Origin: Eledone cirrhosa
Taxonomy: Eukaryota
Reading direction: 5' to 3'
Assembly: GCA_964016885.1 (NCBI GenBank)
Contig: OZ024756.1
Coordinates: 42,408,001-42,472,000 of the forward strand
DNA: 64,000 nt
Both the position numbers and the translations under genes were made by a program. How positions within the stretch are numbered: the stretch's first letter is position 1; each line of letters starts with the position of its first letter. This document shows positions 56,008 to 63,960 of this stretch, in pieces. The notes beneath the pieces are model-generated. The model was given only the letters and a program-made list of their open reading frames with translations. It ran no database searches and was not told the DNA's origin.

Positions 56008-56037
56008 TATATATATATATATATATAAAACCATATT

Positions 56038-56103
56038 TATTTCATTATATATATTTCGGGGATATCATATTAACAATATGCTATGCCTTCATCAGACAAA
56101 ATA
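56038..56103 (-). ncRNA. Mirror copy of the 56.2-kb hammerhead motif
   Basis: Exact reverse complement within the perfect 114-bp inverted repeat 56024-56137/56163-56276. Confidence 0.7.
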
Positions 56104-56196
56104 CAATATAAACAGTTTTATAGATAAATAGATTCGACATACAGTTATAACACCGACTTCATTCGAATCTATTTATCTATAAAACTGTTTATATTG

Positions 56197-56262
56197 TATT
56201 TTGTCTGATGAAGGCATAGCATATTGTTAATATGATATCCCCGAAATATATATAATGAAATA
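56197..56262 (+). ncRNA. Minimal type-I hammerhead ribozyme motif
   Basis: TATTTTGT-CTGATGA(56205-11)-A GGCATAGCATATT gtt AATATGATATCCC C-GAAA(56243-46)-TATATATA-ATGAAATA. Stem I of 8 bp (2 GU), palindromic stem III, AUA cleavage triplet. Confidence 0.72.
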
Positions 56263-56418
56263 AATATGGTTTTATAAATATAGTTTTCCATTTATTTAAT
56301 ATTGTAAATATACTCCAAATATTTGTCGAGTGCTTTTATATCAGTTATAAATATTTACTAGTTGTAACCCAACAATTTTAAATATAACTTTCCATATATA
56401 TATATATATATAAATATA

Positions 56419-56687: not shown

Positions 56688-57305
56688 ATCATCATCATCA
56701 TCATCATCATCAGGTTTAGCGTCCGTGTTCCACACTTGCATGGGTTTGGACGGGGGTTTTCCCACTTGAGGCAAGAATGGTTGTCTTGCTCGCATAGGAC
56801 TGTCTGGCGGGTTTTCTACAGTTGGATGCCCTTCCTAACACCAACCACATTTACAGTGTGGGGCTGGGAGGTTTTTACCGTGTTGCCTACACGGCCACAT
56901 TTACAGCGTGGACTGTGTGTTTTTTTTGTCGTGACACCTACACGATCTCATTTGTTTCGGCCTGGATGTTGTGGGACCAACATAACTTTACATGAAAGGG
57001 GCGGTGTGGATGGGGTGGAGGTGGTGGGACGGGGGGGTGTTTTGATAGAGATGCTACTGACTGTAGTAGGTTTTTACTTTGTATTTAGGTAAGGCGGGTC
57101 TTCTCTATTACTGAGTACCGCCAAAGGTCTCGGTCCAGTGACATTGTCTTGGAGAGGTGTAAGCGTGTGAGGTCGGAATTTATCAGCTCGTCCCATGTTT
57201 TTCTGGGTCTGCCTACTCCGTGGCTACCGTCTATCTTTATTGCCCTGCACTTTGTTATACAGCTGTCGTCTTTCATGCGCATCACGTGACCGTACCAACG
57301 TAGCA
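56688..57305 (-). mobile_element. RTE-clade LINE 3' end with (GAT)n tail, inserted in (AT)n
   Basis: LRWYGHVMRMKDDSCITKCRAIKIDGSHGVGRPRKTWDELINSDL...DRDLWR, followed by 3' UTR and gatgatgat. Confidence 0.88.
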
Positions 57306-58141
57306 TATATATATATATATATAAAAATATATATATATATAAAAATATATATATATATATATAAAAATATATATATATATATATAAATATAAAAATATAT
57401 ATATAAATATAAAAATATATATATATATATAAAAATATATATATATATATATATATAAATATAAAAATATATATATATAAAAATATATATATTAGAAAGT
57501 GAGGTTTTTTTTACAAAATGAAAAATAACCGAGGTATCCTACACGAGTGAAAGTATAAAGAAAAAAAGATGAAATCGAAAATGCAACTGGAGTCTTATTT
57601 TTTTAAAAATATATATATTTATTTGGTTCCTTTACCGGTTTCGCAGTTCTTCTGCTTTTCAAAAGTAGAGTTGAGATGGAGGGTCTGTGGTTTTTCTCAC
57701 ATCTGGTTGGTCTCTGAATGTTACTTGTTTTATATGGAAAAAGTGGTTCGAAATGCCAGGTTTTTCGAGAAGTAATTTGATTGGTTGGTCAATAATTATA
57801 ATAAATTTCGCGCCAGTTCGCGTTACAATAGTTCTTCAAATAAGAGGGATTGGTTGGTCAATAATTATAATAAATTTCGCGCCAGTTCGCGTTACAATAG
57901 TTCTTCAAATAAGAGGGGGGGGGGGGGGGGGTGTCACAGGTTGTTTTTTCATATATGAGTGTTTGAATTTCTTTTTACTTGAAAAAAGGGGCTCACGAAG
58001 GCTTTTTTAAAAATATATATATATATTTGTTTATAAATATATATATATATATATATTTTTATATATATATATAAAAAATATATATATATATATATATATA
58101 CGATATTAAACAAATGGAAACTATATTTATAAAACCATATT

Positions 58142-58207
58142 TATTTCATTATACATATTTCAGGGATACCATATTAAAAATATGGCATGCCTTCTTCAGA
58201 TAAAATA
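58142..58207 (-). ncRNA. Third, diverged copy of the 56-kb hammerhead family
   Basis: TATTTTAT-CTGAAGA-AGGCATGCCATATT ttt AATATGGTATCCCT-GAAA-TATGTATA-ATGAAATA. Substitutions relative to the 56-kb copy mostly keep or improve pairing. Confidence 0.7.
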
Positions 58208-58461
58208 CAATATATAAGCAGTTTTATAAATAAATTTGACGTACCATAAATATTGAACAACATCCATTTAAGAGGTTGGTTTGGTAGTGAAATGTTTATA
58301 AATATTTAGTGTTAAGCACAGTTAGAAAGAAAGACGGAGAAAAGGAAGAAATGTATGTAAAGAAAAACAGAGAGAGATAGAGAGAGAAATGGGAGAGAGA
58401 AATAGTGAGGAGGTGAAAAATGTATATATATATATATATATATATATATGGAAAGTATATC

Positions 58462-58615
<154 letters not shown>

Positions 58616-58650
58616 ATTTATATATATATATATTTATATATATATATATT

Positions 58651-58770
<120 letters not shown>

Positions 58771-58781
58771 ATATATATATT

Positions 58782-58814
<33 letters not shown>

Positions 58815-58817
58815 ATT

Positions 58818-58870
<53 letters not shown>

Positions 58871-58894
58871 ATATTATTTATATATATATATATT

Positions 58895-59405
<511 letters not shown>

Positions 59406-59599
59406 GATAAATCTACCAAGAGTTTACGGTAGTGTCCAATCCGTGTGAAGAACTCAATGTATTCCAGATATCATGGAAAGAAGAGATGTAATGAAAAATC
59501 ACTTTCGGTGAAAGATAAAACGGTATACAGAGTCAAGATAAAATATTAAACAAATAATGAATAAACAATGAGACAGTTCCTTATATTAAACAAAAAAAG

Positions 59600-59750
59600 T
59601 TCATTATTTAACGATCGTTTCTAGGATATATATGTGTTAGAATTGGCATGCATATTCAACAGATCTATGTACAAAATTATACAAAATTATACAAACTATC
59701 AAGATTAAATATACATACCAACACATATATACGCCGTCTTCAGAAATAAT
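59600..59750 (-). ncRNA. Mirror copy of the 59.8-kb hammerhead motif
   Basis: Reverse complement of the plus-strand motif; stem I 5' strand truncated to ATTATTT. Confidence 0.72.
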
Positions 59751-59780
59751 TTCTGAAGACGGCGTATATATGTGTTGGTC

Positions 59781-59934
59781 TTCATTATTTCTGAAGACGG
59801 CGTATATATGTGTTGGTATGTATATTTAATCTTGATAGTTTGTATAATTTTGTATAATTTTGTACATAGATCTGTTGAATATGCATGCCAATTCTAACAC
59901 ATATATATCCTAGAAACGATCGTTAAATAATGAA
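59781..59934 (+). ncRNA. Type-I hammerhead ribozyme motif with extended stem II
   Basis: Stem I TTCATTATTT(59781-90)/AAATAATGAA(59925-34), perfect 10 bp. Core CTGAAGA(59791-97). Stem II of about 19 bp closing a large loop. GAAAC(59913-17), palindromic stem III AACGATCGTT, predicted cleavage after GUU (59924). Confidence 0.8.
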
Positions 59935-60033
59935 CTTTTTTTGTTTAATATAAGGAACTGTCTCATTGTTTATTCATTATTTGTTTAATATAAGGAACTG
60001 TCTCATTGTTTATTCATTATTTGTTTAATATTT

Positions 60034-60109
<76 letters not shown>

Positions 60110-60197
60110 TATATATATAATTATATATATAATTATATATATATAATTATATATATATATATATATATATATAATTATATATATATATATATATATA

Positions 60198-60239
<42 letters not shown>

Positions 60240-60253
60240 TATATATATATATA

Positions 60254-60345
<92 letters not shown>

Positions 60346-60348
60346 ATA

Positions 60349-60429
<81 letters not shown>

Positions 60430-60459
60430 ATTATATATATAATATATAATATATATATA

Positions 60460-60500
<41 letters not shown>

Positions 60501-60518
60501 ATATATATATATATATAT

Positions 60519-60656
<138 letters not shown>

Positions 60657-60683
60657 AATTATATATATATATATATATATATA

Positions 60684-60770
<87 letters not shown>

Positions 60771-60785
60771 ATATATTATATATAT

Positions 60786-60983
<198 letters not shown>

Positions 60984-60994
60984 ATATATATATT

Positions 60995-61048
<54 letters not shown>

Positions 61049-61068
61049 ATATATATATATATATATAT

Positions 61069-61111
<43 letters not shown>

Positions 61112-61121
61112 TTATATATAT

Positions 61122-61228
<107 letters not shown>

Positions 61229-61244
61229 TATATATATATATTTA

Positions 61245-61444
61245 NNNNNNNNNNNNNNNNNNNNNNNNNNNNNNNNNNNNNNNNNNNNNNNNNNNNNNNN
61301 NNNNNNNNNNNNNNNNNNNNNNNNNNNNNNNNNNNNNNNNNNNNNNNNNNNNNNNNNNNNNNNNNNNNNNNNNNNNNNNNNNNNNNNNNNNNNNNNNNNN
61401 NNNNNNNNNNNNNNNNNNNNNNNNNNNNNNNNNNNNNNNNNNNN
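61245..61444. other. Assembly gap (200 N)
   Basis: Run of N between an (AT)n tract and a tandem repeat. Confidence 1.
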
Positions 61445-61910
61445 TAGCTGTCGAGACACTGCATCCTTTAAAACCTCCATGGAACAAACTACCTGCATTA
61501 GTTGTTAGCTGTCGAGACACTGCATCCTTTAAAACCTCCATGGAACAAACTACCTGCATCAGTTGTTAGCTGTCAAGACACTGCATCCTTTAAAACCTCC
61601 ATGGAACAAACTACCTGCATCAGTTGTTAGCTGTCGAGACACTGCATCCTTTAAAACCTCCATGGAACAAACTACCTGCATCAGTTGTTAGCTGTCAAGA
61701 CACTGCATCCTTTAAAACCTCCATGCTTCCTGAGATTCGCCAACACTACACCTAATATCTCCCCCTCTATACACACGCATACATGTATTCATGACTCGTA
61801 CACTGTTTGCTTTCCTGACATTTGTACATTATTCTATGAACTATACATGCACCTTTGATGAGTTGTAGTGCACCTGAGCACTGTACACAATAATTTTATT
61901 ATTATTATTA
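61445..61910 (+). repeat. 61-bp tandem array (at least 4.5 copies) formed from a CR1-type LINE ORF2 end, followed by its 3' UTR and (ATT)n tail
   Basis: Unit encodes WNKLPASVVSCRDTASFKTSM; the last copy continues LPEIRQHYT* then ...gcacctgagcactgtacacaataattttattattattatta. Confidence 0.85.
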
Positions 61911-62387
61911 TGACCACATCACCTGAGCCAACTAATTGGGGTCCTTTGTAGTCTGCTCCCAAACTCTATTCTCCATCAGTAATTTTTCTAGGTTGTCTCC
62001 ATTGATTGGGGGGGGGGGGGGGGGGGGGCGTCTAAAAATGTTATAAGCAGGAGAAGAGGAAGATTATAAGTTCCCTCATATATAAACTCCCCTCCACATA
62101 GTATACTTATAGAGCCTAGGTCTAAATCATTTAATTAACCCTTTAGCATTAAAACCGGCCATATCTGGCCAGAATTCTCTCACCTCTTTCTATTTAAATC
62201 AGCCATAACTGGCCACTCATACTGATGTTAAGGTATTGTTCTCAAAATAAATAATATCAAAATCTCATAGATTTGATATTATGTCAGATAATTATGTGAA
62301 GTGAAGTGTTTACCGTGAAAATACAATAGTATATATAGAGTAATGTAAATGGTAAAGGGTTAATTAAATAAAAACATGCCAACTTGC

Positions 62388-62571
62388 CTTCATCTTCATC
62401 GTCTTCTTTGTTCTGATGAGAGGAATATGTATTGAGGAAGTTTGCAATGTCACCACCATTTTCAATTAGTTCCGTGTATGTACCTGTACTGATTACCTTT
62501 CCTTTGTTGATAACTATAACAAAATCAACGAAGGGTAACCAGTGTACACCATGGGTGACCAACAGACGAGT
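62388..62571 (-). CDS. ABCC1: ABCC/MRP transporter, H-loop/linker exon (ABCC1 exon 19 equivalent), GC donor
   Basis: TRLLVTHGVHWLPFVDFVIVINKGKVISTGTYTELIENGGDIANFLNTYSSHQNKEDDEDE. Acceptor cctttcag; ends at AAG|GCAAGT, giving 184 bp. Confidence 0.92.
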
Positions 62572-62609
62572 CTGAAAGGTAGAATAAAACAGGGACAGTA
62601 ATTTGATGG

Positions 62610-62745
62610 TCAATAATTATAGATAGATGTGATTTAGTGATCAATAATTTAGATAGATGTGATTTAATGATCAATACTTATAGATAGATGTGATCTGGTA
62701 ATCAATAATTATAGATAGATGTGATCTGGTGGTCAATAATTATAG
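62610..62745. repeat. 31-bp intronic tandem repeat, 4-5 copies
   Basis: tcaataattatagatagatgtgatttagtga units. Confidence 0.85.
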
Positions 62746-62957
62746 GCAGATATGTCTTCAAAGACCAGTCAGTATTTAAGCAGATCCATTGACCTACAGG
62801 TGGCCCCAGGGCCTGATATATAATCTCATGCTTTTCTGAGTACCTTTTATCATGGCACCAACGCAAGGGAAGTTGTTGCATCCTCTTGTCACAGTTGAAG
62901 AGACCTTCCAACACTTTTTGGGGGCAGGTTTTCAATGGCTGGATACCCTTGCTATCA

Positions 62958-63960
<1,003 letters not shown>

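Follow-up and report, generated by a model that had tools for sequence, protein, structure and literature searches.

Inverted hammerhead-bearing termini of a Hydra-type Penelope-like element in a (TA)n tract of Eledone cirrhosa, a probable by-product of retrotransposon insertion

The window analyzed here is a 64,000-nt stretch of the Eledone cirrhosa genome (GCA_964016885.1, contig OZ024756.1, positions 42,408,001–42,472,000, forward strand), which contains a hairpin with a hammerhead ribozyme motif on each strand. The locus raises the question of whether such a hairpin moves as a unit of its own or is the trace of another element, and how its two arms came to face each other. A first-pass annotation had taken it for a young, non-coding mobile hairpin that folded back by self-priming or template switching at the ribozyme helix. 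The hairpin is almost certainly a pair of head-to-head 5' ends (pLTRs) from an abundant Hydra-type Penelope-like retrotransposon (PLE) in a (TA)n tract, and it is probably a by-product of this autonomous element, not a mobile unit.

The insertion could be delimited at 59400–60036, between two (TA)n microsatellite tracts that represent the target (58463–59399 and 60037–61100, the latter read as far as 61100). The earlier extent of 59538–60036 proved too short, since the 138-nt tail of the left arm (59400–59537) had been overlooked. In the family numbering, +1 is the base right after GUU. The long arm lies on the minus strand. Its hammerhead motif (59610–59750) begins exactly at family position -141 and consists of a 7-nt stem I strand (59750–59744), the CUGAAGA core (59743–59737), a stem II of 115 nt, and GAAAC, stem III and GUU (59621–59610); the following +1..+72 (59538–59609) holds the 3' strand of stem I and a downstream hairpin competing with stem I. 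The tail covers +73..+209 from the predicted cleavage site, measures 138 nt against 137 nt in the reference copy, stops at the long 3' end of the family against (TA)n, and matches the 5' UTR leading to the ORF in locus L044. The short arm lies on the plus strand and likewise starts from -141 (motif 59784–59924), with the core at 59791–59797, stem II at 59798–59912, and GAAAC, stem III and GUU at 59913–59924. The predicted cut falls after 59924, and +1..+72 (59925–60036) stops at the short 3' end of the family against (TA)n.

Comparison of the inverted arms (59538–59750 versus 59784–59990) revealed 207/207 identical nucleotides, in agreement with the near-perfect arms described before. The 40-nt tandem duplication (period 40, 59940–60031), private to the right arm, and the stem I of 10 bp in the plus copy and 7 bp in the minus copy were likewise reproduced. 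Hammerheads occur on both strands because the arms are inverted; their presence on both strands was read correctly, but they are not two independent motifs. The head-to-head junction (59749–59783) consists of a 2-nt overlap, a sense copy of -138..-108 (59749–59779) and then 4 nt, readable as antisense-templated or native. With this 31-nt templated insert, local template switching is visible. The junction creates a direct repeat spaced 38 nt and the 63-nt central palindrome (59717–59779) that had already been noticed, in which the centre base alone is unpaired. Short tandem repeats were also observed elsewhere in the window, at 57779–57916 (period 69), 61445–61749 (period 61) and 62598–62741 (period 31).

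Each arm reads CUGAAGA, 115 nt, GAAAC, a palindromic stem III and a GUU whose last base is 59924 on the plus strand and 59610 on the minus strand; the 12-mer of GAAAC, stem III and GUU gave two matches against none in 100 shuffles. The type-I assignment with a palindromic stem III was right, as CUGANGA, GAAA, a UH cleavage site and stems I and III are all present. The full hammerhead grammar claimed for the arms holds for the core, GAAAC, stem III and GUU, but not for stem II. At its base a C.A pair was found in 23/23 copies (the search patterns fixed the A, whereas in most sets they left the C free) in place of the G10.1-C11.1 of canonical and minimal PLE hammerheads, and its fourth pair is a C.C mismatch in 21/23. 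The large stem II loop of about 75 nt reported earlier is instead predicted to be structured, with a second helix of about 17 bp and a third short one; the fold of this region gave z = -5.3 on the sense strand and -2.3 on the antisense strand.

Across 23 aligned copies of three subfamilies, 97.2% of the cells of a 20-pair model could pair, compared with 31–46% in slid controls. Changes on both sides were observed at four pairs, three in stem II and the outermost of stem I, which turns from U-A to C-G in subfamily C (4/5). In stem II, where 3/7 pairs change on both sides and 97.5% of cells are paired, these changes represent few independent events; the copies are related, and the number of covarying pairs was not above the shuffle control (121/500). 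Stem III is invariant in 23/23 copies, partly as imposed by the search patterns. On these alignments, the ribozyme motif once called intact-looking appears conserved, with covarying pairs, although its stem II closes in a non-canonical way. A search with Rfam models at E <= 1 over 57000–63000, the kind of check suggested at the outset, gave no hammerhead; the 10 miRNA hairpin matches, all below gathering scores, were rejected as generic hairpin scoring.

The genome-wide copies and the linked autonomous PLE anticipated in the first-pass annotation were both found. A DNA search, in which 40 of 606 candidates were scored, produced 44 matches, 43 of them at 100% identity, and many were minus/plus pairs 0.1–12 kb apart. 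The 27-mer across the cleavage site had 6,716 exact matches genome-wide (control 0), and two sister subfamilies with a GUA site accounted for 1,637 further matches of a 20-mer. Ten long loci turned out to be head-to-head palindromes of a 5'-truncated retroelement. In L044, this element consists of a pLTR with tail, an 813-aa ORF, a microsatellite-rich 3' UTR of 3.8 kb and a second pLTR. The arms correspond to the pLTR of this element, which has intact RT/GIY-YIG copies elsewhere in the genome, and the earlier attribution to a PLE pLTR was right. All 55 ORF matches scored were full length at 99–100%, 53 of them without stops. The tandem period is 6,788 in L044 and 6,672 in L149, giving a unit of 6.7–6.8 kb. 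At G000:C1:183737167-183759629 and C6:49528822-49551217, four full-length ORF copies follow one another head to tail at a period of about 6.65–6.68 kb. The parent PLE is very active, and the young age assigned to the hairpin was right. Contigs of four sequencing runs on the L044 pLTR-ORF junction contained no strand-changing joints and no end pile-ups. In two runs the depth of the pLTR plus tail was far above that of the ORF; contig depth does not equal copy number, and the runs possibly come from the source sample, so the difference is given no weight here. A DNA transposon with 212-bp TIRs was rejected, as the inverted arms run for kilobases and contain the PLE ORF.

The 813-aa protein carries YRDD at 346 and IVY...YIG at 692–709, placing RT and GIY-YIG in a single ORF with a C-terminal EN. 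It further contains RWR at 37 (a conservative RWK variant), DKT at 115, a CxCX5C linker (673–681), and CxxC (771–774) and CxH (799–801) flanking E and N. By eye, a CCHH inside GIY-YIG is absent, the sole cysteine pattern between the GIY and YIG halves being VYKC and then ICSYIG. Pfam and PDB sequence searches with this ORF returned nothing significant, while its Atlas neighbours (0.96–0.99) were eukaryotic clusters annotated with HTH_animal, GIY-YIG and RVT_1 on part of their members. Partial-tandem pLTRs, inverted 5'-truncated copies and a tail at one end were all observed, as in EN+ PLEs. The Hydra clade is characterized by a C-terminal EN, RWK, DKT, CxCX5C, CxxC/CxH and (TA)n targets (PMC8557442). 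Insertion into (TA)n is shared by the present family, and the short unit of that clade (<3 kb, a general and not a strict feature) is not. With reference proteins compared by eye, these motifs make it very probable that the element belongs to the Hydra clade, a judgement that covers the pLTR identity of the pair as well. Diverged Hydra-like ORFs with 38–50% identity were also encountered in L081, L095, L097, L098 and others.

The 3' ends of the arms follow a countable rule. The 95 arms compared stop mainly at two positions, +72 (43 arms) and +209 (41 arms); eight of the remainder end within a few nucleotides of these positions or at +58, and three elsewhere (+28, +330 and one near). One short and one tailed end were combined in 60/65 distinct inverted pairs, whereas no pair had two tails, one had two short ends and four were other. 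The sole pair with two short ends is a larger palindrome with matching flanks. The loci come mostly from one contig (C1), and some sets were picked by junction patterns; target site duplications are unreadable in (TA)n. The window obeys the rule: its left arm is the tailed one (to 59400) and its right arm the short one (to 60036). That one of two inverted pLTRs bears a tail was already known (PMC3846280, PMC8557442), and in vitro the tail of the Poseidon PLE PAc is the stretch between two internal RT start sites, 30–40 nt (PMC11167929).

Hammerhead motifs of other families were also present in the window. A second head-to-head pair of a different family occurs at 56029–56395 in (TA)n (cores at 56095 minus and 56205 plus); its arms are identical over about 120 nt, one being short and the other carrying a tail of >100 nt, and by this pair the short/tail asymmetry seems to hold beyond the family of the window. 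A minus-strand hammerhead at 58100–58260 (core 58199), apparently solo, is a relative of the family at 56.1 kb. A further 33 hammerhead-like motifs, belonging to at least six other sequence families, were noted across about 0.5 Mb of examined DNA, in the flanks of L002, L012, L026, L036, L050, L051, L082, L085, L089, L091, L093 and L098.

The 5' boundary of the arms is equally sharp. Genome-wide, boundaries preceded by a non-native base numbered 134 at -142, 1,730 at -141 and 340 at -140 (controls 0), while the native upstream sequence of one subfamily was kept in 1,563 matches, a figure that undercounts read-through copies. At 449 loci the sequence turns within 30 nt between two cores. Solo copies flanked by TA tracts begin at this -141 edge too (L077 inner, L080, L089, L091, L097), so that it is independent of inversion. 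The base before -141, counted by eye in the first 100 matches listed, was G in 29, T in 24 and A in 47, against G 5, T 87 and C 8 before -140 (G versus T, Fisher p = 2.6e-11). Of 18 G cases examined, nine could not be templated by the partner arm and nine were explicable by a partner-arm G; in L060 and L063 the extra base (G/C) stands on both arms. We take the -141 site to be Inr-like. An untemplated 5' G has been interpreted as a copied cap in L1 (PMC9341517), and Penelope has a start site and an internal promoter within the pLTR (PMC2377424). From this sequence pattern we infer that the element RNA starts at -141 and is capped. The arms do turn inside stem I, as first described, yet because the RNA most likely starts there and not because of the ribozyme helix.

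Arms of the same locus differ very little, with no difference in 19/29 pairs and a mean of 1.3 against 10.4 between loci (the mean includes L055, with 23 differences, in which an internal duplication misled the script). Because within-locus differences are so few, the arms of one locus share a source. Such near-identity would be expected under the self-priming proposed for PLEs (PMC3846280), by which a tailed cDNA folds back near stem I, copies itself and is then cut or joined at +72, although identical arms fit copy-back and later gene conversion equally. The short/tail asymmetry is also expected from self-priming if +72 is an endonuclease resolution site (PMC8557442), and a cttca/tgaag stem compatible with snap-back could be seen by eye in 5 of the first 50 listed junctions. 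However, where arms are unequal by >=20 nt, the short arm reaches further 5' in seven pairs and the tailed arm in five, so that in 7/12 the short arm holds sequence absent from the tailed arm that should have been its template. This count leaves out L043 (rearranged), L077–L079 (diverged 3' UTR), pairs differing by <20 nt, and L036+37, L042 and L076, which are not short-plus-tail pairs. At four loci (L083, L094, L095, L145) the short arm extends to between -135 and -147, whereas the tailed arm terminates within the tail. A longer short arm could also be mimicked by deletions at the centre of an unstable palindrome. As either arm may hold sequence absent from the other, two priming events are favoured over self-priming. 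Solo +72 copies beginning at the same 5' edge and the extra G/C on both arms of L060 and L063 also speak against self-priming, as do the loop-less palindromes found by eye at 14 of the first 50 listed junctions, which intramolecular snap-back cannot make directly and which would be expected from identical cDNA ends annealing by terminal AT or TA. Self-priming is thus improbable as the general route.

Junctions differ among loci and carry private insertions. In L063 (G000:C1:23.58 Mb) and L060 (1.12 Mb), a 13-nt unit of the RNA 5' end is tandemly repeated, which recalls a telomerase-related RT using its template repeatedly, or else templated end-joining. Rare junctions in L154 and L135 use the identity of antisense -141..-135 with +1..+7; here stem I complementarity is serving as microhomology.

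The variability of the junctions bears on whether the hairpin itself spreads. A 29-mer across the window junction occurs once in the 3.0 Gb genome. This unique junction gives no sign of spread as a unit, and the earlier idea of a mobile hairpin was left unsupported and is largely refuted. The window locus is an ordinary by-product insertion, one of hundreds. A non-autonomous ribozyme mini-element, retrozyme- or MITE-like and spreading as a hairpin of about 600 bp, or else a centre-deleted long element, would agree with the abundance of short fold-backs (449 loci; 15/32 inverted pairs among the first 100 matches listed are spaced 234–308 nt) and with the existence of PLE-derived retrozymes (bioRxiv 10.64898/2026.07.22.740005). 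This explanation is very unlikely given the varying junctions; furthermore, no tandem HHR array of short units was observed, transcription from the putative start sites would run outward, both ribozymes would be buried in a read-through RNA, and deletion of the centre at random would not leave its edge at a single base. Short single-arm transcripts may nevertheless serve as templates. An assembly or chimeric-read artefact is scarcely credible: palindromes in long TA tracts are artefact-prone, but unequal family-specific ends (+72/+209), a one-arm duplication, a complex junction and hundreds of like loci would hardly be produced in this way.

We consider it rather probable that the pair was made in one insertion, in which both nicked strands were primed on the same uncleaved, likely capped RNA. 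This reading starts from two observations: the arms match the pLTR of an element whose RT/GIY-YIG ORFs are intact, and the family has two fixed 3' ends. The element RNA would be capped and would start at -141, within the 5' strand of the hammerhead stem I. The endonuclease would nick both (TA)n strands, and each 3'-OH would prime a cDNA, one at +72 and one at +209. Both cDNAs would pass the uncut ribozyme site up to the RNA 5' end, like strong-stop DNA, and their 3' ends would be joined by 1–2-nt microhomology, often with short templated insertions (31 nt in the window). Long palindromes and ORF-bearing copies could arise by the same route on tandem (read-through) RNA. There is in vitro precedent, as the Poseidon PLE PAc cleaves and extends both strands with unprocessed RNA as template (PMC11167929).

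Dual priming on two RNAs, one for each arm and kept together through the palindromic stem III or a protein dimer, is a rival explanation. The invariance of stem III in 23/23 copies (partly imposed by the search patterns) would suit it, PAc is a predicted dimer (PMC11167929), and full-length arms on both sides would form without strand displacement. However, the shared private variants would then require both RNAs to come from a single locus, although at least 53 intact ORFs exist, and the strict one-short/one-tail rule would need an extra asymmetry. In one case, L145, the tailed arm ends at about +71, the place of the other primer on a shared RNA. Two priming events on one RNA are accordingly ranked above self-priming and above two-RNA priming, the latter being slightly the more doubtful of the two.

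The hammerhead itself appears poorly suited to act in the 5' copy. In single arms, the predicted hammerhead fold lies 3–12 kcal/mol above the monomer minimum, and in a read-through of the whole hairpin 151 kcal/mol above it. For the window subfamily, the monomer cost is 4.5 kcal/mol over -141..+12 and 11.3 kcal/mol when +72 is included, and a predicted +1..+60 hairpin competes with stem I in all three subfamilies. Read-through lowers the cost clearly in subfamilies B (3.4 to 1.7) and C (2.0 to 0.8) and slightly in A (4.5 to 4.2). Because stem I covaries upstream of -141, the 10-bp stem I is available only in read-through RNA; in RNA starting at -141, stem I consists of 7 A-U pairs. Fold-backs turning within 25 nt of the cleavage site numbered 19, against 449 at the 5' edge, and arms beginning near +1 after A/T-rich sequence numbered 28, against 1,730 at -141, so that cDNA arrest at this site can account for no more than a minor class. 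Such rare ends are in line with the uncut RNA template used in vitro (PMC11167929). In 4/19 cleavage-site fold-backs both arms start within 1 nt of the site, faintly suggesting that cut RNA may serve as template on occasion. On the folding models, the ribozyme would be weak in the 5' copy and likelier to be active as a dimer or in the 3' copy of read-through RNA.

These results can be combined in a joint reading, which we offer tentatively and rate at somewhat under an even chance. PLEs would normally insert by obligatory two-ended priming from two fixed sites on one capped, uncut RNA, with cDNAs that run off at the cap and join head to head. The start would lie deliberately inside stem I and thereby cripple the 5' ribozyme, leaving cleavage to the read-through 3' copy alone, which has a covarying 10-bp stem I and a new architecture of long, C.A-closed stem II. 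If this is true, the whole PLE cycle is recorded at single-base resolution in this genome, in thousands of fossil strong-stop products.

Compared with the Hydra clade (e.g., Hydra-1_Obim and Penelope-n_HM), the element shares the order of RT and GIY-YIG in a single ORF, the motifs, the (TA)n target, and a type-I hammerhead with a GUH site and often a non-G-C stem II closure (PMC8557442). An inverted 5'-truncated copy at the 5' end is also described there for Penelope-13_HM. It departs from the Hydra clade as given in that source by its unit of 6.7–6.8 kb (against less than about 3 kb), 115 nt between the core halves (against about 12–25 nt in the Hydra table), a tail of 137 nt (against 30–40), and its thousands of copies with dozens of intact ORFs (PMC8557442). 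Published Hydra hammerheads have short stems and a stem II closed often by U.U or G-C, and in the supplementary Hydra table the C.A closure appears only in PLE-X1_cBra (PMC8557442 supplement). Because the present variant was missed by Rfam and lies beyond the spacer limits of the core search described in PMC8557442, similar motifs may have been overlooked.

Penelope and Poseidon insertions resemble the present ones in direct and inverted pLTRs, a one-sided tail and palindromic junctions (PMC3846280, PMC2377424, PMC11167929), and in a pLTR start site with internal promoter, two RT sites bounding the tail, and uncut RNA (PMC2377424, PMC11167929). The short/tail rule counted here (60/65) and the one-base 5' convergence in stem I with an extra G distinguish the present family, and its ribozyme is located in the 5' UTR, some 360 nt upstream of the ATG, whereas that of PAc overlaps the ATG (PMC11167929). 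The data disfavour the self-priming reading as put forward in PMC3846280. Minimal PLE hammerheads are likewise of type I, located in the pLTR, equipped with a palindromic short helix III and found as opposite-strand pairs (PMC4209133); in Schistosoma mansoni, such dual hammerheads are 100–700 bp apart (Cervera and de la Pena 2014, PMC4209133). The low, dimer-dependent activity already reported for them is matched here by prediction, whereas the lack of G10.1-C11.1, a stem I of 7–10 bp against 4–5 and the very long stem II set the present motif apart (PMC4209133).

In L1 twin or dual priming, two nicks prime two cDNAs and yield inverted arms in one insertion, but the event is occasional and the fragments do not overlap (PMC2837659); here the two arms are copies of one segment begun at two fixed sites, and two-site priming looks like the normal route. 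The literature searched, which was largely open-access, yielded no report of a short/tail count, of a stem I start with an extra G or of PLE twin priming. Non-LTR retrozymes are also non-coding, PLE-derived and equipped with a type-I hammerhead, but they are arranged as head-to-tail tandems (bioRxiv 10.64898/2026.07.22.740005), whereas the window hairpin is head-to-head with a unique junction, and the first 100 matches listed contained two same-strand neighbours within <3 kb against 32 inverted pairs. The origin of inverted pLTRs and one-sided tails in PLEs has been stated to be open (PMC8557442); with countable rules and dozens of intact, near-identical ORFs, PLE end formation becomes directly testable in vitro. 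The structure is of a known kind, and what is new beside the known systems is the ribozyme architecture, the long tail and the long unit, together with, at the family level, the short/tail counts, the one-base 5' edge in stem I and the extra G.
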